A stretch of 13,362 bases of DNA from Lysobacterales bacterium. Lineage in GTDB: Bacteria; Pseudomonadota; Gammaproteobacteria; Xanthomonadales; SZUA-5. Below are positions 1,040 through 13,255 of this stretch, piece after piece. Under the pieces are notes generated by a model. It worked only from the letters and a program-made list of their open reading frames with translations, ran no database searches and had not been told where the DNA came from. The translations under genes and the position numbers were made by a program. The DNA is taken from positions 1-13,362 of the forward strand of contig JALHMH010000059.1 in the NCBI GenBank assembly GCA_022844165.1, in the 5' to 3' direction. Within the stretch, counting starts at the first letter, position 1, and every line of letters begins with the position of its first letter.

Positions 1040-1210
1040 GATTGCGGCACTTAGCCATCACCCATGTATCGCTTCAGTTCCGGACCTATCGCGTCGCGAG
1101 ACGGTCACGTCAGGTCGTCGATGGCCATGAGCGAGGAAGACCGGTCGACGTTGATTTGTCTTTCGCCTGACTGACCAGATTGGCGTTGCGAACAACGCAA
1201 CGCGGCGTTG

Positions 1211-1276
1211 CGCTTTTCGGACGTTCTCTGCTGACTCGTGCCGCCCTAGGCTGCGCGCCGTCCTGACCGAAAAGCG
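1211..1276. repeat. 10-bp perfect inverted repeat upstream of the operon
   Basis: CGCTTTTCGG (1211-1220) and CCGAAAAGCG (1267-1276) flank a possible -10 box TAGGCT (1247-1252). Confidence 0.6.
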
Positions 1277-1289
1277 TGCATCGTCTGCA

Positions 1290-3422
1290 ATGAAAAGCCG
1301 TTGGCTGTTGCTGGTTCTGATCGTCGTCGCCATCGCGATGTTCTTCGGCTTTGGCCTCGACGACTACTTGTCGCTGCAACGGCTGAAGTCAGAGCAGGCA
1401 GCGCTTGCAGCCTGGATCGCGGACAACGCCGTCATTGCCGCCGCTGCGTACTTCATCGCCTACGTGCTGGTGGCGGCGCTGTCGCTGCCTGGGGCGGCGG
1501 TGATGACGCTCGCGGGCGGCGCGCTGTTCGGTCTTGGATTTGGCACGCTGCTGGTGTCTTTCGCCAGCAGCCTTGGCGCGACGCTCGCCTTCTTCGCCGC
1601 GCGGTTCTTGTTTCGCGATGTGGTGAAAGAGAAGTTCGGCGAGCGCCTGGCGCCAATCGAAGCGGGTGTGGCGCGCGATGGTGCGTTTTACCTGTTCACG
1701 CTGCGCCTGGTGCCGGCGTTCCCGTTTTTCCTGGTGAACCTGTTGATGGGACTGACGCCGATGAAGAGCGGCGTGTTCTATCTCGTCAGCCAGATCGGCA
1801 TGTTGCCGGGCACGGCCGCCTTCGTTTACGCGGGCACGCAGCTGGCTCAAATCGACAGCCTGTCGGGCATATTGTCCCCGGGTTTGCTGGGTGCATTCGC
1901 CATCCTCGGCGTATTGCCGTTGCTGCTGAAGTGGCTGCTCGGTACGCTCGCTGCGCGTCGCGTGTATCGCGGCCACACCAAGCCCAAATCGTTCGACTAT
2001 AACTTGATCGTGATTGGCGCCGGCTCCGCGGGTCTGGTCAGCGCCTACATCGGCGCGGCAGTGAAATCGAAGGTGGCGCTGATCGAGCGGCATCGTATGG
2101 GCGGCGATTGCCTGAACACCGGCTGCGTGCCATCCAAGGCGCTGCTGCGCAGCGCGCGTCTGGTGGCTGAGGCCAAACGCAGCGCGCGTCTGGGCATTCG
2201 CTCGATGCACATCGATATGTCGTTTGCCGAAGTCATGGCCCGTGTGCACAGTGTCATCGCGGCTGTCGCGCCGCACGACTCGGTCGAGCGCTATCGCGGA
2301 CTCGGTGTCGACTGTATCGAGGGCGAAGCGAAGCTGGTGTCGCCGTGGATGGTAACCGTCAATGGCCGGTCGCTGAGCGCTCGTTCGATCATCGTCGCCA
2401 CGGGCGCAAAACCGTTGGTACCGGCCTTGCCGGGTCTGGAAGATGTCGATTACTTGACCACCGATAGCGTCTGGTCGTTACGCGAACAACCGCAGCGTTT
2501 GCTGATCCTGGGCGGCGGCCCGGTGGGTTGCGAGCTGGCGCAAGCGTTTGGGCGCCTGGGCAGTCAGGTGACGCTGGTGGAGATGGCGCCGCGGCTGGTC
2601 CCGCGCGATGAAGACGACGCCAGCGTGGCGCTACGCGCTGCGCTCGAACACGATGGCATCGATATCCGCACTGGCCACAAGGCGCTGCGCTTCGAGCGCG
2701 GTGGCGGCGCCCAGTCGCTGATCGCGCAAGGCGCCGACGGCGAGATCTCGATTCCTTTCGATCGTGTGTTGCTGGCGTTGGGGCGCAAAGCCAATGTCGA
2801 TGGATTTGGCCTGCGCGAACTGGGCGTGGTGTTGAATCAGCGCGGCACGGTGGCCGCAGATACCCTGATGCGCACCAATTTCCCGAACATTGCGGTCTGT
2901 GGCGATGTGACCGGGCCGTTGCAGTTCACGCACGTCGCCGCGCATCAGGCGTGGTACGCGGTGGTTAATCAACTACTCGCGCCGTTCTGGTCGTACCGCG
3001 TCGATATGCGTGTGATTCCCTGGGTGACCTACACTGAACCGCAGGTGGCGCGCGTCGGGCTGTCGGCCGCCGATGCCGAACAACAAAACATCGCTTTCGA
3101 AATCACACGCTACGGCATGGACGATTTGGACCGCGCGATCGCTGATGACACGGCCGAAGGTTTCATTCAAGTGCTTACCGTTCCCGGCAAAGATCGCATT
3201 CTCGGTGCGACGATCGTGCATGCCGAAGCCGGCGAGTTGATCGCCCCATTCGTGCTGGCAATGAAACACAACCTGGGCTTGAACAAGATCCTGGGCACAG
3301 TTCACGCCTACCCAACCTTGATGGAAGGCAACAAATATGTGGCGGGCGCCTGGCGCCGGGCACACGCGCCGATCAAGGCACTGGCCTTCGCAGAACGCTA
3401 TTTCGCTTGGAGACGCACATGA
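1290..3422 (+). CDS. DedA/VTT (TVP38/TMEM64, SNARE-associated) membrane domain fused to a class I pyridine nucleotide-disulfide oxidoreductase (MerA/Lpd-like)
   Basis: The N-terminal ~220 aa are hydrophobic with DedA-type motifs (LPGAAVMTLAGGALFG, GATLAFFAARFLFR, LRLVPAFPFFLVN). Then come the FAD motif IGAGSAG, the redox disulfide GGDCLNTGCVPSK, the NAD motif GGGPVGCE...VTLVE, GDV and C-terminal HAYPTLME. It lacks the MerA C-terminal CC pair, so it is not called merA. Confidence 0.93.
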   Translation: MKSRWLLLVLIVVAIAMFFGFGLDDYLSLQRLKSEQAALAAWIADNAVIAAAAYFIAYVLVAALSLPGAAVMTLAGGALFGLGFGTLLVSFASSLGATLAFFAARFLFRDVVKEKFGERLAPIEAGVARDGAFYLFTLRLVPAFPFFLVNLLMGLTPMKSGVFYLVSQIGMLPGTAAFVYAGTQLAQIDSLSGILSPGLLGAFAILGVLPLLLKWLLGTLAARRVYRGHTKPKSFDYNLIVIGAGSAGLVSAYIGAAVKSKVALIERHRMGGDCLNTGCVPSKALLRSARLVAEAKRSARLGIRSMHIDMSFAEVMARVHSVIAAVAPHDSVERYRGLGVDCIEGEAKLVSPWMVTVNGRSLSARSIIVATGAKPLVPALPGLEDVDYLTTDSVWSLREQPQRLLILGGGPVGCELAQAFGRLGSQVTLVEMAPRLVPRDEDDASVALRAALEHDGIDIRTGHKALRFERGGGAQSLIAQGADGEISIPFDRVLLALGRKANVDGFGLRELGVVLNQRGTVAADTLMRTNFPNIAVCGDVTGPLQFTHVAAHQAWYAVVNQLLAPFWSYRVDMRVIPWVTYTEPQVARVGLSAADAEQQNIAFEITRYGMDDLDRAIADDTAEGFIQVLTVPGKDRILGATIVHAEAGELIAPFVLAMKHNLGLNKILGTVHAYPTLMEGNKYVAGAWRRAHAPIKALAFAERYFAWRRT

Positions 3423-4213
3423 AAATCTACATCGCCATCCTACTGTTCGCGCTGACCGGCAGCGTGGCCGCATTCGACCACGAGCATCGGGCATTCACCG
3501 AACTCCTGGCGCCGCATGTCGCCTGGAACGCCGCTGGAACGAGTACTGGCGTCGACTACGCCGGATTGCAGCGCCAGCGGGCGCCGCTGCGGGAATACCT
3601 GGCGACGCTCTCGGCGGTCGATCAAGCCACGTTCGATGGTTTCACGTTACCCCAGCGTCAGGCATTTCTGATCAACGCGTACAACGCGTACACGCTGGAG
3701 TTGATCCTCACCGCGTACCCGAAACTCGAATCGATCAAAGATCTGGGATCGCTGTTTTCTTCGCCTTGGAAGAAGGCCTTCTTCCGGCTGCTCGGCGAGG
3801 AGCGCCACTTGGACGACGTCGAGCACGGTTTGCTGCGCGGTGCCGAGGACTTCAACGAGCCGCGTATCCACTTCGCCGTGAACTGCGCATCCATTGGTTG
3901 TCCGGCGTTGCGGCCGGAGGCCTTCACCGCTGCGCGATTTGATGCGCAACTCGACGACCAAACGCGTCGATTCCTGCGCGACCGCACGCGCAATCGCTAT
4001 GAGGCGGACGACGATGTGCTGCTGCTGTCGTCGATCTTCGATTGGTACGCCGGCGACTTCGAGACCGGCTGGCGCGGCACCGAGTCGGTGGCGGCATTTG
4101 TCGCGCTGTATGCGGATGCCATCGGCGCCGATCCCGCGCTCGCCGCGCGACTGAAGAGCGACGAGGTGGAGATCGACTATCTCGACTACGACTGGTCGTT
4201 GAATTCGAAATGA
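3419..4213 (+). CDS. Exported DUF547-domain protein (264 aa)
   Basis: ATG at 3419 overlaps the upstream stop (ATGA). It has a signal peptide MKIYIAILLFALTGSVAA and motifs VDY, AFLINAYNAYT, LDDVEHGLLR, EPRIHFAVNCASIGCPAL, LSSIFDWYAGDF, YDWSLN. Confidence 0.92.
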   Translation: MKIYIAILLFALTGSVAAFDHEHRAFTELLAPHVAWNAAGTSTGVDYAGLQRQRAPLREYLATLSAVDQATFDGFTLPQRQAFLINAYNAYTLELILTAYPKLESIKDLGSLFSSPWKKAFFRLLGEERHLDDVEHGLLRGAEDFNEPRIHFAVNCASIGCPALRPEAFTAARFDAQLDDQTRRFLRDRTRNRYEADDDVLLLSSIFDWYAGDFETGWRGTESVAAFVALYADAIGADPALAARLKSDEVEIDYLDYDWSLNSK

Positions 4214-5241
4214 GCGCGCGTGTCATTCTGATCGTGGATGCCAGCCAGGAGGCCCTGCTTCGCGCTGCGTTTATGGGCGCCGGCTTTGCGGTGCGCGTTC
4301 CGACGCCGGACGAGAGCACGCTCGACAGGTGGATCGCGTTGGCGCGTTCAGGCGAAGCCGCGCTGTTCGTCATTGATCCGCGTCGCTTGAATACGGTCAA
4401 TGTCAGTCTCGCTGCCGCTGCCGCGGCCATCCGGTTGCAAATACCAGATGCAGCAGCGGCTGCATCGTTCAGCGACCGCGAACGACCGCTACCGCTGACT
4501 CATAACTGGGCAATCCGGCATGGATTGTTGGGCGCCTTCGGTCGCGTAAGCAAGGCGCAACTCGCACAATCGGCGGAAGCGCTGTTGGAGGCAGCTACGC
4601 GTCGCATCGGCGCGTCATGGCAGCCTGAGCGTGTGCAGCAGTTTGCGCGCGCGCTGTTGACCGTCGATACCGATGCGAATCTTACGCCGACGGCCATGAG
4701 CGACGAATTCGTCGATCGCCTGGCCGATTCGATTCTCGAAGAATGCCTGGCGCTCGGCGATCGACGTTGGCGCCTGAAGTCCTATCCCAGTTGTTTTGTC
4801 GGCATCGATGCGGTCAGCCAGATGGCACGCAAGTTGGGTACTGATCGCGCTGCGGCGACCGCCTTTGGCCAACGCCTGCTTGAACGCGGTTACATCTATC
4901 ACGTCACCGGCGATCAGCCCTTTCGTGACGGCAACTTCTACTATCGGGTGCATCAGATCACTGACCGCCTCAAACGCGTCGATATCGACCAGATCGAACT
5001 GCATCTGCGCAAACGTGTGGCCATCGCCGATCGCACCTGGCGTGGTTTGTCTTTCCCGCGCTGTTTTGTGGGCAGCGACGCGCGCCAGATTTTGATGCGC
5101 GAGGTGGACCTGGGGTTTGCAGAGGCCGTGACATTGGGCCAGGCACTGCTCGAAACCCACGCATTCCGGCACGTGGCCGATGCCCACGATTTTTTTGGCA
5201 CCGACTACTTCTATCGCTTCGTGCCGGAGGTCTACGCATGA
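4210..5241 (+). CDS. Receiver-like N-terminal domain plus two tandem DEP (Dishevelled/Egl-10/Pleckstrin) domains (343 aa)
   Basis: Start moved to ATG 4210 (ATGA overlap). Two 66-aa repeats 90 codons apart (4753-4950, 5023-5220) follow the pattern DRxWR..S[YF]PxCFVGxDA...A...GQxLLE....HV.....F....[FY][YF]YR[VF], matching the DEP consensus. The N-terminus has a beta/alpha receiver-like pattern (VILIVD...LFVID); this part of the call is weaker. Confidence 0.85.
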   Translation: MSARVILIVDASQEALLRAAFMGAGFAVRVPTPDESTLDRWIALARSGEAALFVIDPRRLNTVNVSLAAAAAAIRLQIPDAAAAASFSDRERPLPLTHNWAIRHGLLGAFGRVSKAQLAQSAEALLEAATRRIGASWQPERVQQFARALLTVDTDANLTPTAMSDEFVDRLADSILEECLALGDRRWRLKSYPSCFVGIDAVSQMARKLGTDRAAATAFGQRLLERGYIYHVTGDQPFRDGNFYYRVHQITDRLKRVDIDQIELHLRKRVAIADRTWRGLSFPRCFVGSDARQILMREVDLGFAEAVTLGQALLETHAFRHVADAHDFFGTDYFYRFVPEVYA

Positions 5242-5681
5242 GCCTATGGTTGCTGGTCGCCGCGCTCGCCACTGCTTCACTGGACGAACTCGCATCCGAG
5301 GGTGCTGCCGCGTATCCAGATGCCCCAGTCATTCGCGTCGAACAGGCCGTGGCACGCACGGATGCGCTGCTGCTCGATGCGCGCGGCGCGGAGGAAATGG
5401 CCGTGTCGATGATCGCGGGTGCGATCCCCGCAAACGCGCTCCCGGACGCCATCGGTGATCGCGTCGTGATCGTCTACTGCACGATTGGCGTGCGCAGCGG
5501 CGAGCTGACGCTGGCGCTGCGCAAGCGCGGCATTAATGCCTACAACCTCTACGGCGGCGTGCTCGCCTGGGCGCAGCAAGACGGTGTGTTCGTCGATAGC
5601 GCCGGGCAACCGACGCGCCGCGTGCATGTGTATGGAAAACGCTGGAACCAACTGCCGAAGAGTTTTGAGCCGGTCTTTTGA
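5238..5681 (+). CDS. Rhodanese-like domain protein, probably exported (147 aa)
   Basis: ATGA overlap with the upstream gene. Motifs are LLLDARGAEE..VSMIAGA, the active-site loop IVYCTIGVRS and YNLYGGVLAW. The N-terminus is short and hydrophobic (MSLWLLVAALATA). Confidence 0.9.
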   Translation: MSLWLLVAALATASLDELASEGAAAYPDAPVIRVEQAVARTDALLLDARGAEEMAVSMIAGAIPANALPDAIGDRVVIVYCTIGVRSGELTLALRKRGINAYNLYGGVLAWAQQDGVFVDSAGQPTRRVHVYGKRWNQLPKSFEPVF

Positions 5682-5760
5682 CGGGAACATTTCGAATCCC
5701 GCCAATCCGCTGTCGCAACCTGCGCGGTATGCCGCGCACATCAACCAGGAGAGAGCAACG

Positions 5761-6066
5761 ATGCAAAGTCATACCACCCCGCGCTGGGCCTTGATTGGCG
5801 TGCTTTTTGTCGGTCTGGGCGCTGCTTTCGGCACTTCGGCCTCTGGCACTCTGTCGCCCGGCGGCAGTGTCGACCCCACGGAGCAAGGACGCCGTGTGTA
5901 CCTGAAAAAAATCGCTTGCACAGACTGCCCCGTGCCCGGCGGTGTATCCGACAAGAGCGCGGCGATGACGCTGGTGGAGCGTCTCAACGCCAACGAGTTC
6001 TCGCTTTCGCGCCGCGAGCGCAACGCCGTCGTCAGCTATCTCAATCGCCGCTGGCGCCTGGGCTAA
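5761..6066 (+). CDS. Small exported protein, class I cytochrome c-like pattern but with CxxCP instead of CxxCH (101 aa)
   Basis: SD AGGAG precedes ATG 5761, followed by a signal peptide-like segment and EQGRRVYLKKIACTDCP...LSRRERNAVVSYL. The ORF-track start at 5536 overlaps the rhodanese gene and is rejected. Confidence 0.7.
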   Translation: MQSHTTPRWALIGVLFVGLGAAFGTSASGTLSPGGSVDPTEQGRRVYLKKIACTDCPVPGGVSDKSAAMTLVERLNANEFSLSRRERNAVVSYLNRRWRLG

Positions 6067-6077
6067 GGAATATCAAG

Positions 6078-6908
6078 ATGAGAAAATTATTCGCTGTGGC
6101 TTTGAGTTGTGTGGGGATTGCGCCGGCATTTGCTGTATCGCCGTGGCTGCCGGTCGCTGGCGGACACGAATTCAGCGTCAGCTATATCGATCAAAACGCA
6201 GATCGTTTTTTTGTCGGCGAAAACGAAATGAACTTGCCGGCCGATCTTGAGCTGCGCACCTTTCAGGTGAACTATGCGTATGGCATCAACGACCGCTGGG
6301 CGCTCGATGTTCAGGCCGGTTACGCCGAGAGCGATTTCATCGTCGATCCAGGCCTGGCGCCGCGCGGCGGGCTCGATGGCTTCACCGATGCGCGGATCGG
6401 GTTGCGTTGGCTGGCATTCGATCAATTCGATGGCCGTCCGTTCACGCTGACGTTGGCGGGCGCTGTGCTGATCGAAGGCGACTACGATACCGGCGCGATT
6501 TCTGCTATCGGCGATGGCGCCAGTGGCGGCGAGTTGTCGCTGATCACCGGTCGCAGCTTCGACTCCGGATTTGCCTGGCAGAGCGAGTTGGGTTATCGCT
6601 TCCGCAGCGGCGAGGTGCCGAACGAGTGGTTTTTCAATCGTACTTTGAGCTACGGATTCAATGATCGTATTTCGGGTCGCCTGAGCTGGAACTCAGTCGA
6701 CGGTCGCGGCGATCTGGACATCGGCGGCCCTGGATTCTCGCCAGCCCGTTTTCCAGAGCTCGAAGAGGACTACGATCTATGGCTCGCAGGCGTGAGCTTT
6801 GTGCCCAGCGATACCTGGCTGCTTGGGTTCGATTACGGTCGTAAGTTCGATGGCCGCAACACCGCCAAGAGTGATGTGTTCGCGTTCACTGTCGGCCGGA
6901 GTTTCTGA
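6078..6908 (+). CDS. Outer-membrane beta-barrel protein, putative channel (276 aa)
   Basis: SD TAAGGA precedes ATG 6078, followed by signal peptide MRKLFAVALSCVGIAPAFA. There are many amphipathic aromatic-ended strands (VNYAYGINDRWALDVQAGY, WQSELGYRFR, LLGFDYGRK) and a C-terminal BAM-type signal FAFTVGRSF. Confidence 0.85.
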   Translation: MRKLFAVALSCVGIAPAFAVSPWLPVAGGHEFSVSYIDQNADRFFVGENEMNLPADLELRTFQVNYAYGINDRWALDVQAGYAESDFIVDPGLAPRGGLDGFTDARIGLRWLAFDQFDGRPFTLTLAGAVLIEGDYDTGAISAIGDGASGGELSLITGRSFDSGFAWQSELGYRFRSGEVPNEWFFNRTLSYGFNDRISGRLSWNSVDGRGDLDIGGPGFSPARFPELEEDYDLWLAGVSFVPSDTWLLGFDYGRKFDGRNTAKSDVFAFTVGRSF

Positions 6909-7639
6909 TGCGCACCGTCGCCGTTATTCCGGCGCGCGATGAGGCGCAGGTGATCGGGCGCGTGGTTGGCGACTTGCTCAGCGCGCGGCGGGGACGCCGC
7001 GCGTTGGTCGATCGCGTCATCGTCTGCGACAACGGTTCGGTCGATGGCACCGGCGCGGTTGCCGCAGCCGCTGGAGCATTGGTGGTGCGCGAGGAGCGCC
7101 GAGGTTATGGCGCCGCCTGTTTGCGCGCGCTGCGCGAGATCGGCGATGCCGAGGCCGTATTGTTCGTCGACGGCGATGGTTCGGTGCGTGCCGAGGACGC
7201 CTGGGCGCTGCTGCTTGCCCTCGATCAGGGTGTCGATCTGGCCCTTGGTCAGCGCCCGCTGGAATGGGTGGAACCCGGCGCCATGACGCCGCCGCAAGTG
7301 GCAGGAACGCGTTTTGCGGTCATGCTGATCCGCTGTTTGTTCGGCTATCGATTCGCTGACCTGGGTCCGCTGCGCGCGATCCGGCGGGCGTCGCTCGAGC
7401 GATTGCATATGGCGGACGCGGCTTACGGTTGGACCGTCGAGATGCAAGTCAAAGCGCTGCTCCACGACCTGCGCATCGTCGAATTGCCAGTGCACACCGA
7501 TAGACGCGTAGGGTTGAGCAAAATCAGCGGCACCTGGCGCGGCGTGATTGGCGCAGGATGCGGCATCATCGGCATGACGCTGAAACTGCGCATCGGCGCC
7601 TGGGTCGACGCGTTGCGGCGGCGCTCGCTCGCCGCGTGA
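6908..7639 (+). CDS. GT2 family glycosyltransferase, DPM1/polyprenol-phosphate glycosyltransferase-like (243 aa)
   Basis: TGATG overlap with the upstream gene. Motifs are VIPARDEA, VIVCDNGSVDGT, RGYGAAC, a DxD motif (FVDGDGS), DLGPLRAIR, GWTVEMQVKA and SKISGT. Confidence 0.92.
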   Translation: MRTVAVIPARDEAQVIGRVVGDLLSARRGRRALVDRVIVCDNGSVDGTGAVAAAAGALVVREERRGYGAACLRALREIGDAEAVLFVDGDGSVRAEDAWALLLALDQGVDLALGQRPLEWVEPGAMTPPQVAGTRFAVMLIRCLFGYRFADLGPLRAIRRASLERLHMADAAYGWTVEMQVKALLHDLRIVELPVHTDRRVGLSKISGTWRGVIGAGCGIIGMTLKLRIGAWVDALRRRSLAA

Positions 7640-8913
7640 ACGTGCTGCTGGCGACTTTTGCGCTGCTCGCCATTGGCACACGCGCCGGATGGCCGCTACC
7701 GGTCTTAGTGGTGTTACTGCTGCTCGCACACCTGGCATTGCTCGGCTGCTGGCGCGAGCGTTTTTCGCGGCGTCGTTTGATGGCAGGCGCGACGCTCGCG
7801 GGATTGCTCGCGATGGCGGCCGTCCCGGTGGCTGAAGACGATTTTTATCGCTACCAGTGGGACGGCTGGCGCACGCTCAATCATGGCACGCCGTATGGCG
7901 CGGCACCGGCGAATCATTTTGGCGATGAGAGCCTGCCGGCCGCTGCACAAGCCGCGCTCGATGGCGTGAACTATCCCGATACACCCACCATTTATGGGCC
8001 TTTGTTGCAGGCACTGTTTGCGACGTCGTGGCTGCTGGGTGAGAACAGCTTTTGGCCGCTGCGTTCATTGACGCTGGCGCTGCATCTTGCCGCACTCTGG
8101 TTGGTGATGCGTTATGCGTCGCGGCGTGCGCTGGCGCTGGTCGCGCTCAATCCGGCGCTGTATTTCTTCGGTTTCATCAATCTGCATCCGGATATCTTGC
8201 TCGGCTGGCTGTTGTTGTTCGCCTGCATTGCAGCTCGTCGGACGCGAATTGCGACAGTGGGGGCGCTGCTTGGCGCGGCGGTGGCGACCAAAATCAGCGG
8301 GTTGATCGTAGCTCCCCTGCTGCTTGCTGCCGGTGGATTCGGCGCAGCGCTGCGCCGCGGAACGCCTGCGATGCTGGCCGCAATGGTGATGAGTTATGCG
8401 CCGTTTCTCGCATTCGGCGATGCCGCCGGGTTGCTCGCGTTTGGCAAGGAGTGGATCTTCAATCCTGGCGCATTTGCGCTGCTCGCGTTGGCATTCGGTG
8501 CCGATATTGCGCGCCTCATTGGCGCCGCGTTATTGCTCATTCTGGCGACAGCGCTACTGCGCACTCGGCGCGAGAATCTGGCGCGCAGCGCCGTCGTTTT
8601 GTTGTCAGCACTATTGCTGGTGGCACCCGTGGTCAACGCCTGGTACGTGCTGTGGTTGTTGCCGCTGGCAGCGCTCACGCGGGCGCAGACGCCGTTTGCG
8701 CTCGCCGCCGCGCTATCGTTGTCGCTGATGACGCGGGGCGAACTCGGTTTGGCTGGCGATCCGTTCTCCCTCGTGCCCTGGGCCGCAAGCTTGCAATGGT
8801 CGTTGATTGGCATCGCTGTTGCCTTCGATTTCATTCGTTGGCGAAAGGCGCATCAATACGCTCCGGTCTTGTCCGGATCGCATGGAGGCGCGCGCGCTTG
8901 CTCACCGCATTGA
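7636..8913 (+). CDS. Polytopic GT-C fold glycosyltransferase (GT87/DUF2029/MptB-like) (425 aa)
   Basis: GTG at 7636 overlaps the GT2 stop (GTGA). The first extracytoplasmic loop has EDDFYRYQWDG and PTIYGP, followed by ALNP, H-x-D, ATK and PVVNAWYVLWLLP. There are roughly ten hydrophobic segments. Confidence 0.82.
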   Translation: MNVLLATFALLAIGTRAGWPLPVLVVLLLLAHLALLGCWRERFSRRRLMAGATLAGLLAMAAVPVAEDDFYRYQWDGWRTLNHGTPYGAAPANHFGDESLPAAAQAALDGVNYPDTPTIYGPLLQALFATSWLLGENSFWPLRSLTLALHLAALWLVMRYASRRALALVALNPALYFFGFINLHPDILLGWLLLFACIAARRTRIATVGALLGAAVATKISGLIVAPLLLAAGGFGAALRRGTPAMLAAMVMSYAPFLAFGDAAGLLAFGKEWIFNPGAFALLALAFGADIARLIGAALLLILATALLRTRRENLARSAVVLLSALLLVAPVVNAWYVLWLLPLAALTRAQTPFALAAALSLSLMTRGELGLAGDPFSLVPWAASLQWSLIGIAVAFDFIRWRKAHQYAPVLSGSHGGARACSPH

Positions 8914-9959
8914 TCATCGCCACGCTGCTGCTTGCCGCTGCCAATGGCGGCAATGACAACATCAAGGGTGCAGCCACATTGCTCGGCGCGGGGCTGCTGA
9001 CGTATCGACAGGCAATATTCGGCGCGACGATTGCAACTGCAATGGGCGGCCTGATCTCGATTTTGATCGCTCAGGAGTTGCTCGCGTTATTTAGTGGGCG
9101 CGGCATTGTGCCTGATGGTCTGACGTCGACGCCGGCCTTCCTGCTGTCGGTTGCGCTGGCCGCGGGAATCACCGTGGCAATTGCCACCGTAGCAGGATTG
9201 CCGATCTCGACGACGCATGCGCTGGTTGGTGGCCTGCTCGGCGCGGGTCTTGGCAGTAAGGCGGTGGTGAATTTTGTGGCTGCCGCGACCGCGACCGCAT
9301 TGCCGTTGTTGTTGTCGCCGCTGATCGCTATGGCGGCGGCGCTCACGTTGGTGCCGGTTGTGGTTCGTTTGCGGCAGCGCCTGCAACCGCTGTGCGTCTG
9401 CGCCGTGCCGGTCGGCGGACCTGCGGCGAGCGTGGCCCGCGTTGTTGCAGCCAGCGACGATCCGCGCTGCGAAACTGCGCTGGAGCGCAGCGAATTGCGC
9501 CCGGCGAAATTGCTCGATGGCGCGCACCTGCTGAGTGCCAGTGCGGTCAGCTTCGCGCGCGGTCTGAACGACACGCCAAAAATCGCAGCCTTGCTGGTGG
9601 CCAGCGGCGCCGCCGATGTATGGGTCGCGGGCAGTGCGGTGGTGTTGGCGATGAGCTTGGGCGCAATTGCGGCGATTCGCGTCGCGCGCACCATGGCCTT
9701 TAAGGTTACCTCGATCGATGCGCCGCCAGGCCTGGCGGCGAATCTGGTCACCTCGTTTCTGGTGATCGGTGCCTCTCGGTTGGGTTTGCCGGTGTCCACT
9801 ACCCACGTGAGTACCGGTGCATTATTCGGCATTGCTCTTGGGCAACGAAGCGGCAGCCCAAGCGTCATCCGCAATATTCTGCTGGCGTGGTTGGCGACGT
9901 TGCCGATTGCCGCATTGCTGGCGTTCTCCATCGCACAACTTCTGAGGAGCTTTTCATGA
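8898..9959 (+). CDS. PiT/PHO4-family inorganic phosphate/anion transporter, divergent signature (353 aa)
   Basis: TTG start at 8898 with GGAGG at 8884-8888. Duplicated PiT motifs are ANGGNDNIKG / PISTTHALVGGLLGAG and ARGLNDTPK / GLPVSTTHVSTGALFG, with C-terminal AWLATLP. Confidence 0.9.
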   Translation: MLTALIIATLLLAAANGGNDNIKGAATLLGAGLLTYRQAIFGATIATAMGGLISILIAQELLALFSGRGIVPDGLTSTPAFLLSVALAAGITVAIATVAGLPISTTHALVGGLLGAGLGSKAVVNFVAAATATALPLLLSPLIAMAAALTLVPVVVRLRQRLQPLCVCAVPVGGPAASVARVVAASDDPRCETALERSELRPAKLLDGAHLLSASAVSFARGLNDTPKIAALLVASGAADVWVAGSAVVLAMSLGAIAAIRVARTMAFKVTSIDAPPGLAANLVTSFLVIGASRLGLPVSTTHVSTGALFGIALGQRSGSPSVIRNILLAWLATLPIAALLAFSIAQLLRSFS

Positions 9960-10990
9960 TTGCCACCGAATCTCTCGCCGCCATTCGTCATTACTACGGC
10001 AGCGTACTGCAGTCGTCGAGCGATCTGAAGACCGGCGCCTGCTGCACGATCGACGCCATGCCGGCGTATTTGCGTCGACTGTTGGACGACGTGCACCCGG
10101 CCGTTCGCGAGCGTTTCTACGGTTGCGGCTCGCCTCTGCCGCTGGCGCTCGAAGGCATGACGGTGCTCGATCTGGGTTGCGGCAGTGGCCGCGATGCGTA
10201 TCTGTTGTCGCGTCTGGTGGGCGAACGCGGCCGCGTCATCGGCGTCGATATGACGGCCGAGCAACTGGCCGTGGCCCGTGCGCACCTGGATTGGCAGGCA
10301 CAACGCTACGGCTATGCGCAGAGCAACGTCGAGTTCGTCGAAGGTTTCATCGAAGATTTGAGCGCCTGCGGTATCGCCGACGGCAGCGTCGATGTCGTCG
10401 TCAGCAACTGTGTGCTCAATTTGTCGCCGGAGAAACCGCGCGTGTTCCGCGAGATCATGCGCGTGCTCAAACCGGGTGGCGAGTTGTACTTCTCAGACGT
10501 TTTTGCCGATCGCCGCGTGCCTGCGGATCTTGCGCGCAATCCGGTACTGCTCGGCGAATGCCTGGGTGGCGCCATGTACCGCGAGGACTTTCGGCGCCTG
10601 ATGGCGAATGCCGGTTGCAGCGACGTGCGGCGCATCAAGGAATCGCCGATTGCGCTGCACGACGAAGCGATCATCGCCAAGATCGGCATGATCGGTTTCG
10701 CGTCTGTCACCTGGCGCGCTTTCAAGCTGCCGCTGGAAGATCGCTGCGAGGACTTTGGCCAAATCGCGACCTATCGCGGCAGCATCGACGGCGCGCCGCA
10801 TGCCTTTGATCTCGATGACCACCATCATTTCGAAACTGGCCGGCCGCTGCGTGTCTGCGGCAATACCTTCGACATGCTCGCAAGCACGCGTTTTGCCGCG
10901 CATTTCGAACTGGTTGGCGATAAACGCCGTCACTACGGACTATTCGATTGTGCGCCGGCGCCAGTCGCTAACGCCGCCCCTTGCTGCTGA
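9956..10990 (+). CDS. arsM: Arsenite S-adenosylmethionine methyltransferase, long AS3MT-like form (344 aa)
   Basis: ATG 9956 has an ATGA overlap and SD GAGGAG. The SAM motif is VLDLGCGSGRD with IGVDMT. All four As-binding Cys positions are present: DLKTGACC, FYGCG, SNCVLNL, GECLGGA. The protein ends in CC. Confidence 0.9.
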   Translation: MIATESLAAIRHYYGSVLQSSSDLKTGACCTIDAMPAYLRRLLDDVHPAVRERFYGCGSPLPLALEGMTVLDLGCGSGRDAYLLSRLVGERGRVIGVDMTAEQLAVARAHLDWQAQRYGYAQSNVEFVEGFIEDLSACGIADGSVDVVVSNCVLNLSPEKPRVFREIMRVLKPGGELYFSDVFADRRVPADLARNPVLLGECLGGAMYREDFRRLMANAGCSDVRRIKESPIALHDEAIIAKIGMIGFASVTWRAFKLPLEDRCEDFGQIATYRGSIDGAPHAFDLDDHHHFETGRPLRVCGNTFDMLASTRFAAHFELVGDKRRHYGLFDCAPAPVANAAPCC

Positions 10991-10999
10991 GAGCTTGCC

Positions 11000-11950
11000 A
11001 TGCACGACGTCCTGCCGCGCCTTCAGGCGCACCGGTTTCCCGCCATCGAGCGTGAGCGTATCGATACGCTGCAATTGAACTTGGGTTACCTGTGCAATTT
11101 GAGTTGCATCCACTGCCACGTCAACGCCGGGCCGCGGCGCAAAGAATTGATGGATCGGCACACGATGGAATTGGCGTTCGATGTCGCGGCACGCCACGGC
11201 GTAAAGCGTTTCGATCTGACCGGCGGATCGCCGGAAATGAACCCGCACTTTCGCGCTCTGGTGACAGAGGCGATTGCGCGCGGCATTCATGTGATGGATC
11301 GGCTCAACCCGACGATCATGGAAGAGCCGGGTTACGAATGGGTCGGGAGCTTTCTAGCCGAGCAGCGTGTAGAAGTTGTCGCATCGCTGCCGTGTTACAG
11401 CCAGTCGAATGTCGATGAGCAGCGCGGCGACGGCGTCTTCGAATCGTCGATCCGTGCTTTGCAGCAACTGAATGCGCTCGGTTATGGCAGCGATCCGGGC
11501 TTGCCGTTGAACCTGGTGTACAACCCCAACGGCGCCTTCCTGCCGCCCAATCAGCAGAAGCTCGAAGTCGACTACAAGCGCTTGCTCCAGGAGAATTTCG
11601 GTATCCGCTTCAACGCGCTGTTTGCACTCGCCAACATGCCCATCCAGCGCTTTGGGTCGTGGCTCGTATCCAAGGGCAAGTTCGACGAGTACTTGCTAAA
11701 GCTGATCGATGCGCACCGCGACGACAACCTGCCCGGCGTGATGTGTCGCTCGCTACTCAGCGTGGACTACGACGGTTATGTCTTCGACTGCGACTTCAAC
11801 CAGATGCTGCGTTTGTCTGCGAGCGATAGACCCCTGCACTTGCGCGATCTGTTGCAGGCCGAGATCCCGCGCAAAATCGCTGTCGCAGGCCATTGTTTTG
11901 GCTGCACGGCGGGCCAAGGTTCGAGCTGCGGCGGGGCGTTGGCGGCGTAA
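11000..11950 (+). CDS. arsS: Arsenosugar biosynthesis radical SAM protein with DUF3641 C-terminal domain (316 aa)
   Basis: Motifs are LQLNLGYLCNLSCIHCHVNAGP (CxxxCxxC), DLTGGSPEMNP, ASLPCY, LNLVYNP.GAFLPP, NMPI.RF, MCRSLLSVDYDG..DCDFNQML and HCFGCTAGQGSSCGG. It is adjacent to arsM. Confidence 0.93.
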   Translation: MHDVLPRLQAHRFPAIERERIDTLQLNLGYLCNLSCIHCHVNAGPRRKELMDRHTMELAFDVAARHGVKRFDLTGGSPEMNPHFRALVTEAIARGIHVMDRLNPTIMEEPGYEWVGSFLAEQRVEVVASLPCYSQSNVDEQRGDGVFESSIRALQQLNALGYGSDPGLPLNLVYNPNGAFLPPNQQKLEVDYKRLLQENFGIRFNALFALANMPIQRFGSWLVSKGKFDEYLLKLIDAHRDDNLPGVMCRSLLSVDYDGYVFDCDFNQMLRLSASDRPLHLRDLLQAEIPRKIAVAGHCFGCTAGQGSSCGGALAA

Positions 11951-13140: not shown

Positions 13141-13170
13141 TTGCGACCGATGGGCCGCAGCCGCTACAAT
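13141..13170 (+). promoter_or_regulatory. Sigma70 promoter of the tRNA-Gly gene
   Basis: TTGCGA (13141-13146), an 18-bp spacer, then TACAAT (13165-13170). A GC-rich discriminator-like stretch of 11 nt precedes the tRNA. Confidence 0.7.
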
Positions 13171-13181
13171 TCGGGCGGATC

Positions 13182-13255
13182 GCGGGTGTAGTTCAATGGT
13201 AGAACTGTAGCTTCCCAAGCTACTAGCGTGGGTTCGATTCCCATCACCCGCTCCA
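13182..13255 (+). tRNA. tRNA-Gly(CCC)
   Basis: 74 nt. Acceptor stem GCGGGTG/CACCCGC, discriminator T and encoded CCA. D arm GTTC-AATGGTA-GAAC. Anticodon arm GTAGC-TTCCCAA-GCTAC with CCC at 13214-13216. T arm GTGGG-TTCGATT-CCCAT. Confidence 0.98.

Follow-up and report, generated by a model that had tools for sequence, protein, structure and literature searches.

An arsM-arsS cluster joined to redox and glycosylation genes

The window analysed here, 13,362 nucleotides that make up the whole of contig C59 (JALHMH010000059.1) in the Lysobacterales bacterium assembly GCA_022844165.1 (4.68 Mb, 59 contigs, rated 99.97% complete), carries an operon-like cluster of eleven genes, numbered g01 to g11, in which the arsenosugar genes arsM and arsS stand together with a DedA-disulfide reductase fusion, a secreted DUF547 protein and a pair of glycosyltransferases (GTs). 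We put at about 55% the probability that this cluster carries arsenosugar synthesis further, to a product bound to the membrane or envelope or to a processing step, and is not a plain methylation-detoxification operon. The steps that follow ArsS and the arsenosugar end products of non-photosynthetic bacteria are undefined, and partners that recur with ArsS are candidate genes for them. The window unites such recurrent partners in one transcription-sized unit, and the candidates that we name are the g01 fusion, a protein type whose function is open in the DedA field, the DUF547 protein, and the lipid-linked GT2/GT-C pair.

The eleven open reading frames (ORFs), whose coordinates were verified, are packed within 1290-11950 on the plus strand, with overlaps of 4, 4, 4, 1, 4, 16 and 4 nt between successive ORFs and gaps of 79, 11 and 9 nt at the remaining junctions. 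This layout agrees exactly with the co-orientation, overlaps and gaps given by the first-pass annotation, a reading of the letters alone. Nine genes start with ATG, g08 with GTG and g09 with TTG, and the last two starts are the least certain. No family of the arsR, arsC, arsB or acr3 type was matched among the scanned window proteins, again as the annotation had it. The closest relative found for the cluster is in a Lysobacterales metagenome-assembled genome (MAG; locus L091). DNA similarity to it extends over 1153-8782 at 77.5% identity (g01-g08) and over 9942-11945 at 87.9% (arsM-arsS), while the 1.16 kb at 8783-9941, which hold the PiT gene g09, have no counterpart in the otherwise collinear L091 cluster (11148-11369). 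From the unequal identity and this indel, the cluster is a mosaic; and because the similarity stops at both flanks, we judge it from its sequence to be a discrete, operon-like unit.

The two genes at the 3′ end of the cluster set its chemistry. The last, g11 (11000-11950, plus strand), encodes the radical S-adenosylmethionine (SAM) enzyme ArsS: it scored 428.4 bits against TIGR04167, whose equivalog cut-off is 300, and did so again in the whole-genome search. It also matched DUF3641 (PF12345, the C-terminal Cys-rich domain) with 176 bits and Radical_SAM (PF04055) with 37 bits, and its translation holds CNLSCIHC, the radical SAM CX3CX2C motif. The gene before it, g10 (9956-10990, plus strand), encodes the As(III) SAM methyltransferase ArsM, which matched the solved structures 5evj ('Arsenite methyltransferase') with E 5.7e-111 over residues 8-334 and 4fr0 with E 7.7e-92. 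The alignment to 5evj retains the motifs GAC, YGCGSP, SNCVLNL and GECLGGA including their cysteines, which we take to be the As-binding residues. The full-length 5evj match of g10 and the passing of the TIGR04167 cut-off by g11 support the earlier naming of the two as genuine arsM and arsS. Members of the ArsM family methylate As(III), and ArsS was reportedly characterised biochemically by Cheng et al. in 2021. For the ArsS family, the portion of a published account available to us describes the SAM-dependent adenosylation of dimethylarsenite to 5′-deoxy-5′-dimethylarsinoyl-adenosine (DDMAA) (PMC13598754). By homology, g10 and g11 are predicted to carry out the chemistry of their families.

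Recurrence of g01 and DUF547 with ArsS

The first two genes of the cluster both recur with ArsS. g01 (1290-3422, plus strand) encodes a fusion of a VTT/DedA membrane domain, at approximately residues 1-230, with a FAD/NAD(P)H pyridine-nucleotide disulfide reductase, as seen in its Pfam matches to VTT_dom (75 bits), Pyr_redox_2 (193 bits) and Pyr_redox_dim (82 bits); against NF004991 it reached 485 bits, under the cut-off of 620. Both cysteines of its CLNTGC redox pair (C274, C279) are kept in each of 24 orthologues. g02 (3419-4213, plus strand) encodes a secreted DUF547 protein (PF04784, 89.3 bits against a cut-off of 27) with a signal-like hydrophobic segment at its N-terminus and a CxxxxC pair (CASIGCP), C156 and C161, that is invariant in 21 sequences. 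DUF547 is found also in plants and has, to our knowledge, no known function; neither sequence nor profile comparison found a significant relative of g02 among solved structures.

To count the partners of ArsS we used two sets of loci. The first comprised the 80 best ArsS loci, all from Pseudomonadota and at 56-75% identity, in which matches were called by tblastn at E<1e-5; many of these loci lie on short contigs, so that the counts are floors. g01 was found in 35 of them, ArsM of the g10 type in 23, DUF547 in 18 and PiT in 5, next to TIGR04283-like genes in 61, TIGR04282-like genes in 47 and an OlsE-like hydroxylase in 25; g03, g05 and g06 were matched in one locus (L020), and g04, g07 and g08 in none. 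The second set came from an even sample of 400 genomes in the class to which the window belongs, among which ArsS (TIGR04167) passed its cut-off in 186, including genomes of ~1.1-1.5 Mb. From the 186 we took 40 neighbourhoods, selected solely because ArsS lies more than 60 kb into its contig, and scanned 20 kb to its left and right, where five of the stretches ran into a contig end, with hidden Markov models built from the loci in hand, which may miss distant family members. TIGR04283-like genes were present in 29 of these neighbourhoods, TIGR04282-like genes in 28 and the hydroxylase in 14. At least half of the length of g01 was matched in 13 and any part of it in 17, split DedA and reductase genes being common; rhodanese was matched in 8 (at 22-33 bits only), DUF547 in 4 and PiT in 2, and ArsM-like proteins at full length in 3 and by their N-terminal part only in 11. 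There was one GT2 match, of 49 bits and ~18 kb away, and g03, g05, g06 and g08 were matched in none of the 40.

Association at the level of whole genomes was tallied in the 400-genome class sample, where 188 genomes were counted with ArsS and one (G253) could not be scored. For g01 (E<=1e-150), 107 genomes had both genes, 81 ArsS only, 18 g01 only and 194 neither (odds ratio 14); for the DUF547 profile (E<=1e-40) the corresponding numbers were 60, 128, 21 and 191 (odds ratio 4.3), for the g08 profile (E<=1e-15) they were 15, 173, 2 and 210 (odds ratio 9.1), and for g08 against DUF547, 16 genomes had both, 1 g08 only, 65 DUF547 only and 318 neither (odds ratio 78), with the proviso that kinship among the sampled genomes makes all of these odds ratios overstate the association and that the p-values should not be read literally. 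The tallies include four genomes flagged as unpublished (G044, G146, G301 and G313). When these are left out, the counts become 104/80/18/194 for ArsS and g01, 58/126/21/191 for ArsS and DUF547, 14/170/2/210 for ArsS and g08, and 16/0/63/317 for g08 and DUF547. Counted from the side of the partners, ArsS is present in 107 of the 125 g01 carriers, 60 of the 81 DUF547 carriers and 15 of the 17 GT-C genomes. g01 tracks ArsS strongly, both at the genome level and in repeated neighbourhoods, and DUF547 does so more weakly.

A GT2/GT-C module enriched in ArsS genomes

The glycosyltransferase pair is formed by g07 and g08. g07 (6908-7639, plus strand) is a GT2 of the DPMS/ArnC-like polyprenyl-phosphate sugar synthase type: in profile comparisons with the Protein Data Bank (PDB) it matched the dolichol monophosphate mannose synthase 5mlz with E 5e-18 over positions 2-201 and ArnC entries with E 2e-13 over positions 2-200, and other GT2 chains matched its N-terminal half only. 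It stays under the curated cut-offs (94 against 325 for AglJ, 58 against 375 for dolichyl-P hexose transferase), is short (243 aa), and gave no strong transmembrane segment in a simple hydropathy scan. g08 (7636-8913, plus strand) is a predicted polytopic GT-C glycosyltransferase, probably a distant relative of GT87/MptA_B. The protein itself had no Pfam match at E 0.01; PF26314 and PF09594 occur on its relatives, GT87 is matched by 7 of the 18 members aligned, and in the Atlas a homologue with 72% identity reaches 0.99 to MptA_B_family clusters. The g08 profile matched two PDB entries, 9dm5 'Mannosyltransferase' (E 1.9e-5) and GPI mannosyltransferase 1 (E 3.3e-5). Four residues are invariant, D69 in an EDDxYRY loop, H184, D186 and K219, and the loop is probably the first extracytoplasmic one. 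GT-C enzymes use lipid-linked donors. The match of g07 to DPMS/ArnC over the whole catalytic domain and the mannosyltransferase and GT87/MptA_B matches of g08 and its relatives uphold the earlier description of a GT2 plus GT-C pair, which we predict to be a polyprenyl-phosphate sugar synthase and a lipid-donor-dependent transferase. Ahead of the pair, g06 (6078-6908, plus strand) encodes an outer-membrane beta-barrel of the Phenol_MetA_deg family (PF13557, 28.3 bits against 22) with a signal peptide.

At first the g08 family seemed very rare, with 27 proteins in a word-index protein search; the profile search of genomes (E<=1e-15) overturned this, with matches in 17 of the 400. Of the 16 other genomes that carry a g08-family gene, we surveyed 12 (all but G146, G198, G327 and G330) over ~19 kb around that gene. 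A g07-type GT2 adjoins the GT-C gene in all 12 (255-283 bits). DUF547 lies near it in 6, with one further partial case, a g05-type small protein in 5, a g06-type barrel in 4 and a full-length g01 in 1; ArsS proper was found near none. One of these regions, in one of the two GT-C genomes scored ArsS-negative (G190; L199, C42:60000-79000), has an ArsM gene of 441 bits and a TIGR04282-like gene adjoining DUF547-GT2, and beside them a radical SAM ORF with a weak match of 42 bits to the ArsS model, which may encode a divergent ArsS-like enzyme.

The module is joined to an arsS cluster only in the window, in L091, in Silanimonas and in two Bdellovibrionales genomes. The Silanimonas locus has a DUF547-DEP-small-OMP-GT2-GT-C row (OMP, outer-membrane protein) divergent from g01-PiT-ArsM...ArsS. 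The Bdellovibrionales genomes hold ArsS, ArsM, PiT, g01, DUF547, a g07-like GT2, a g08-like GT-C and a rhodanese together in other gene orders, with a different outer-membrane porin, CMD/AhpD proteins, a YHS-domain protein and a MarR/ArsR-type regulator as extras; a third genome of this order has the same pieces on separate short contigs. The GT2/GT-C module, with its small protein, barrel and DUF547 protein, is conserved and enriched in ArsS genomes, and usually lies apart from arsS.

The first-pass annotation had expected all nine partner families of arsM and arsS to be enriched near arsS, and this held in part. It stood at the genome level for g01, DUF547 and GT-C, with the odds ratios given above, and g01, DUF547, GT2, GT-C and PiT all recur beside arsS in a second phylum in other orders. 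It did not stand for the neighbourhoods of the GT2, GT-C, outer-membrane barrel and CxxC genes, present in 0/40 and usually unlinked to arsS, for PiT, present in 2/40 and absent from the L091 cluster, or for the tandem-DEP gene, which was seen in three Lysobacterales loci only.

Arsenic genes outside the window

TIGR04283 and TIGR04282, the common neighbours of ArsS, are absent from the window. Their best matches in the genome are at C16:21990-22610 (171 bits against 182) and C7:38577-39137 (96 bits against 134), each among housekeeping genes. On contig C34 (L151 1-2281, minus strand) an ArsR/SmtB-like gene, a low-molecular-weight protein tyrosine phosphatase arsenate-reductase-like gene, an OlsE-like hydroxylase-like gene and a MIP channel gene stand in a row, all below their curated cut-offs, and may supply arsenate reduction and an As(III) channel in trans. 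The hydroxylase family of this row is the frequent ArsS neighbour counted above (14/40). The first-pass annotation held that the cell acquires arsenic in order to build a product and does not just detoxify it. This was not shown, since the arsR/arsC-like/MIP locus on C34 exists and a window devoid of ars genes is on its own no proof of deliberate acquisition. The parts in uptake, reduction and tailoring that the annotation gave to the partner genes are likewise putative.

A proposed mechanism and its alternatives

In the mechanism that we propose, one operon-like unit would merge three gene sets that in other genomes are mostly apart, yet co-resident. The first would start the pathway, ArsM methylating As(III) to dimethylarsenite and ArsS converting this with SAM to 5′-deoxy-5′-dimethylarsinoyl-adenosine. 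The second, a thiol-redox and membrane set, would comprise the g01 fusion, DUF547, the rhodanese and sometimes PiT. Here the flavoprotein part of g01 would consume NAD(P)H in holding a dithiol or an As(III) species in the reduced state, and the DedA half may handle lipid, because DedA proteins flip undecaprenyl phosphate or scramble phospholipids, according to the part of a published account available to us (PMC10127716). DUF547 would bind or relay an arsenical or a disulfide in the periplasm, and PiT would admit arsenate, phosphate or sulfate. The third set would serve lipid-linked glycosylation: g07 would attach a sugar to polyprenyl phosphate on the inner side of the membrane, and after flipping the GT-C protein g08 would transfer it to an acceptor on the periplasmic side, accompanied by the CxxC protein and the outer-membrane barrel. 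The sugar moved could be a common hexose or the arsenosugar, and the acceptor could be DUF547, a lipid or an envelope glycan; of these, DUF547 is the most tightly co-occurring candidate. TIGR04283 and TIGR04282 would act in trans from other contigs. The most specific form of this scheme we regard as a long shot: dimethylarsinoyl-ribose formed through ArsM and ArsS would be activated, loaded by g07 onto polyprenyl phosphate, flipped with the DedA half of g01 as candidate flippase, and put by g08 in the periplasm onto DUF547 or an envelope lipid or glycan. If it were true, many Gram-negatives would carry an arsenic-containing envelope glycoconjugate, and the flavoprotein, DUF547, the CxxC protein and the rhodanese would form a trans-membrane thiol relay serving it.

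Several observations weigh against an extension of arsenosugar synthesis toward the envelope. g10 is below every NCBIfam ArsM cut-off, its best being NF008823 with 185 against 263, followed by NF040538 (152 against 500) and the arsenosugar ArsM model NF038099 (107 against 400). ArsS is lacking in 18 of the 125 g01 carriers, and 81 of the 188 ArsS genomes lack g01; two genomes of one genus have g01 and a strong DUF547 match and no ArsS, and therefore the pair can work without ArsS and is not strictly ArsS-dependent. A second g01 copy, 60% identical, stands alone on contig C25 (13536-15665) with no adjoining DUF547. The GT2, GT-C, outer-membrane barrel and small-protein genes did not occur as a module in any of the 40 sampled ArsS neighbourhoods, and a triad of small protein, barrel (a g06 homologue) and GT-C lies between glmS/serS and spoU-type genes in a Hyphomonadaceae MAG (L092), a genome of unstated completeness in which no ArsS exceeded the cut-off. 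The kinship that inflates the odds ratios belongs here as well.

The alternative that survives best, unlikely and still to be taken seriously, is a detoxification or damage-control operon. ArsM and ArsS would then dispose of As(III) by turning it into organoarsenicals of lower reactivity, with no arsenic-containing envelope product, the flavoprotein, DUF547, rhodanese and CxxC proteins would shield or restore thiols under attack from As(III) and methyl-As(III), and the GTs would remodel the envelope under stress. Such a role would suit the AhpD/CMD-type peroxidase-like genes in the clusters of relatives, the divergent regulator of locus L011, which resembles RclR, the 199 bits that g01 also scores against RclA-type reductases, and the presence of g01 and DUF547 in some ArsS-free genomes. 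Methylation could be the main outlet for arsenic in this nearly complete genome, where a genome-wide search matched neither ArsB nor a Grx-type ArsC and gave Acr3 34 bits at best, below what its model requires; the arsR/arsC-like/MIP locus on C34, however, already offers a route, and an in-cluster PiT would raise, not lower, arsenate entry. Nor is a general thiol-stress system expected to track ArsS as g01 does in its 107 of 125 carriers, and the GT2/GT-C pair in ArsS genomes (15/17) is left unexplained by this alternative.

Rather improbable, in our estimate, is a chance composite, that is, an arsenic-unrelated glycosylation module (g05-g08, perhaps with DUF547) that landed amid an ordinary arsenosugar cluster, separating its upstream from its downstream half, and was co-inherited in a few lineages. 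An insertion of this kind fits poorly with a fusion that came about in two phyla and no fewer than three arrangements (those of window/L091, of Silanimonas and of Bdellovibrionales), and with window genes that are translationally coupled by 1-16 nt overlaps. The distribution of the module can be read both ways: it is missing from all 40 ArsS neighbourhoods, all 12 module regions lack ArsS proper and part of the module occurs without ArsS in the Hyphomonadaceae genome, but ArsS is present in 15 of the 17 module genomes as against 188 of 400 overall, and DUF547, itself tracking ArsS, in 16 of the 17. The mosaic identity to L091, with its PiT indel, is also consistent with a composite.

That the cluster handles something other than arsenic, be it selenium, antimony or a sulfur compound, under misleading 'Ars' names is very improbable. 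Such a reading can draw on the selenoprotein forms covered by TIGR04167 and by several ArsM-like NCBIfam models, on the equal score of PiT against a sulfate permease model, on the presence of a rhodanese and on an ArsM under the curated cut-offs, but g10 matches a solved arsenite methyltransferase at E 5.7e-111 with its cysteine motifs retained, and ArsS lies well above the equivalog cut-off of a family whose activity on dimethylarsenite is documented in the portion of the source available to us.

Comparison with known systems

The arsM-arsS core and its TIGR04283 and TIGR04282 partners are already annotated as arsenosugar biosynthesis, and with this NCBIfam cluster (TIGR04167, ArsM, TIGR04283, TIGR04282) the window shares adjacent arsM and arsS genes and an ArsS above the cut-off. 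Relatives such as locus L011 have a row of g01, DUF547, PiT, ArsM, TIGR04283, TIGR04282, hydroxylase, ArsS and an AhpD-like gene, and the classical cluster is also carried, among the loci compared, by Pseudomarimonas salicorniae (L008) and Novilysobacter erysipheiresistens (L013). The window differs in that TIGR04283 and TIGR04282 are on C16 and C7 and that six genes (DEP, rhodanese, CxxC, outer-membrane barrel, GT2 and GT-C) stand between DUF547 and PiT; roles of g01 and DUF547 appear in no description of the arsenosugar cluster that we found. ArsM is sometimes part of ars operons, and a canonical ars operon (arsR, arsC, arsB/acr3) is likewise arsenic-handling, but the window lacks these genes, and arsR-like, arsC-like and MIP genes are on C34.

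On the glycosylation side, a DPMS/ArnC-like GT2 paired with a GT-C resembles ArnC/ArnT, the dolichol-P-mannose/GT-C systems and the mycobacterial polyprenyl-phosphate-mannose (PPM)-dependent GT87/MptA pathway, and a candidate flippase domain, DedA, lies within the same window operon. In contrast to these pathways, which have no equivalent of the link to ArsS and DUF547, g08 reaches only about E 1e-5 to solved GT-C chains, and g07 is short with no strong transmembrane segment. The g01 architecture, a reductase fused to a DedA protein of the COG0398 subfamily, is the one noted as the commonest DedA fusion; in the portion of the source available to us, DedA-oxidoreductase fusions are described as common and unexplained in function, and the subfamily is linked to aerobic metabolism with no function given and no mention of ArsS (PMC10127716).

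Our literature search, in which supplements were not covered, found no paper tying DedA-reductase fusions, DUF547 or a polyprenyl-phosphate GT2/GT-C (GT87-type) pair to arsenic. A 2025 review names, in the portion available to us, only cyanobacteria as bacterial arsenosugar producers (PMC12159101). With ArsS in 186 of 400 genomes of one proteobacterial class, the enzyme is far commoner than the cyanobacteria-centred literature, as far as these sources represent it, suggests. Should the GT2/GT-C module act on the arsenical, organoarsenicals of the envelope or of lipids would form a new class, and cells would have grounds other than detoxification for processing arsenic; failing that, g01 and DUF547 remain putative redox factors associated with ArsS.

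Further features of the cluster genes

The DedA domain and the reductase of g01 are separate genes near ArsS in many genomes (for example in loci L122, L134, L136, L148, L153, L173, L175, L181, L183 and L191), so the fusion is one of two forms; the loci with split genes often also carry the hydroxylase and a weakly scoring rhodanese. The idea that the window is an import, with the lone g01 paralogue on C25 as the vertically inherited copy, was not supported.

g03 (4210-5241, plus strand), which the first-pass annotation had left unnamed, encodes a cytoplasmic tandem-DEP protein (PF00610, 122 bits in 2 stretches; DEPTOR tandem DEP match, E 2e-13). Its N-terminal residues 1-170 (window 4210-4720) had no family match, and by eye this part resembles a receiver-like alpha/beta domain. 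Its relatives were found in three Lysobacterales loci only, the window, L091 and the Silanimonas locus (L020/L108), and bacterial tandem-DEP proteins seem to be rare. g04 (5238-5681, plus strand) is a single-domain rhodanese (PF00581, 35.8 bits against a cut-off of 22.2) with 84 bits to NF045521 'rhoda_near_glyco', under the cut-off of 145. Its active-site cysteine C81 (YCTIGVRS) is invariant in 7 sequences and its C-terminal extension is conserved; close orthologues are in L091 and in the Bdellovibrionales loci L096 and L109. A hint of a GT-C-rhodanese fusion comes from 1 of the 18 aligned g08 relatives, which has a rhodanese domain match. g05 (5761-6066, plus strand) encodes a secreted CxxCP protein of 101 aa with a signal-like N-terminus and no family in Pfam/NCBIfam-type scans; C53 and C56 of its CxxCP motif are invariant in 4 sequences.

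g09 (8898-9959, plus strand) encodes a short PiT/PHO4-family anion transporter (PF01384, 176 bits against 33.7), with 47 bits each against the CysP sulfate permease and PitA models, far under their cut-offs. The g08/g09 junction is bridged by short DNA contigs from two studies, and PiT is an occasional cluster member. Around the GT-C gene in Bdellovibrionales locus L094 (4158-13017) lie genes for an adenylate/guanylate-cyclase-domain protein, a YHS-domain protein, two CMD/AhpD proteins, a BBP2-type porin, a MarR/ArsR-like regulator and an extracytoplasmic function (ECF)-type sigma factor.

Cluster boundaries and flanking sequences

Upstream of the cluster, 87 nt before the g01 ATG, a perfect 8+8 palindrome, GCGTTGCG-N5-CGCAACGC, occupies 1183-1203 of the plus strand. 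It is the only match in the window, with 0 in 200 shuffles, and in its exact form it occurs nowhere else in the 4.68-Mb genome. Its arms are kept in L091, where the spacer differs, and it is a candidate operator of the cluster. A promoter and terminator scan gave no signal above shuffles, and no terminator-like site stood out inside the cluster.

Two flanking genes, one upstream for a membrane-bound regulator-like protein and one downstream for a lipoprotein, were considered as parts of the cluster and set aside, as neither has a counterpart in the 80 ArsS loci or in L091. A foreign origin by composition was rejected as well, the GC content being 62.2% in the cluster and 60.5% in the genome. 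About 1.2 kb from the cluster is a tRNA-Gly(CCC) gene (13182-13255), the only match in an Rfam scan, and the sole sigma-70-like site of the window (13141-13170) precedes this tRNA gene. At the other end, positions 2-118, 39 codons' worth of sequence at the start of the contig, are identical to C40:39729-39845, and C59 probably continues into contig C40.

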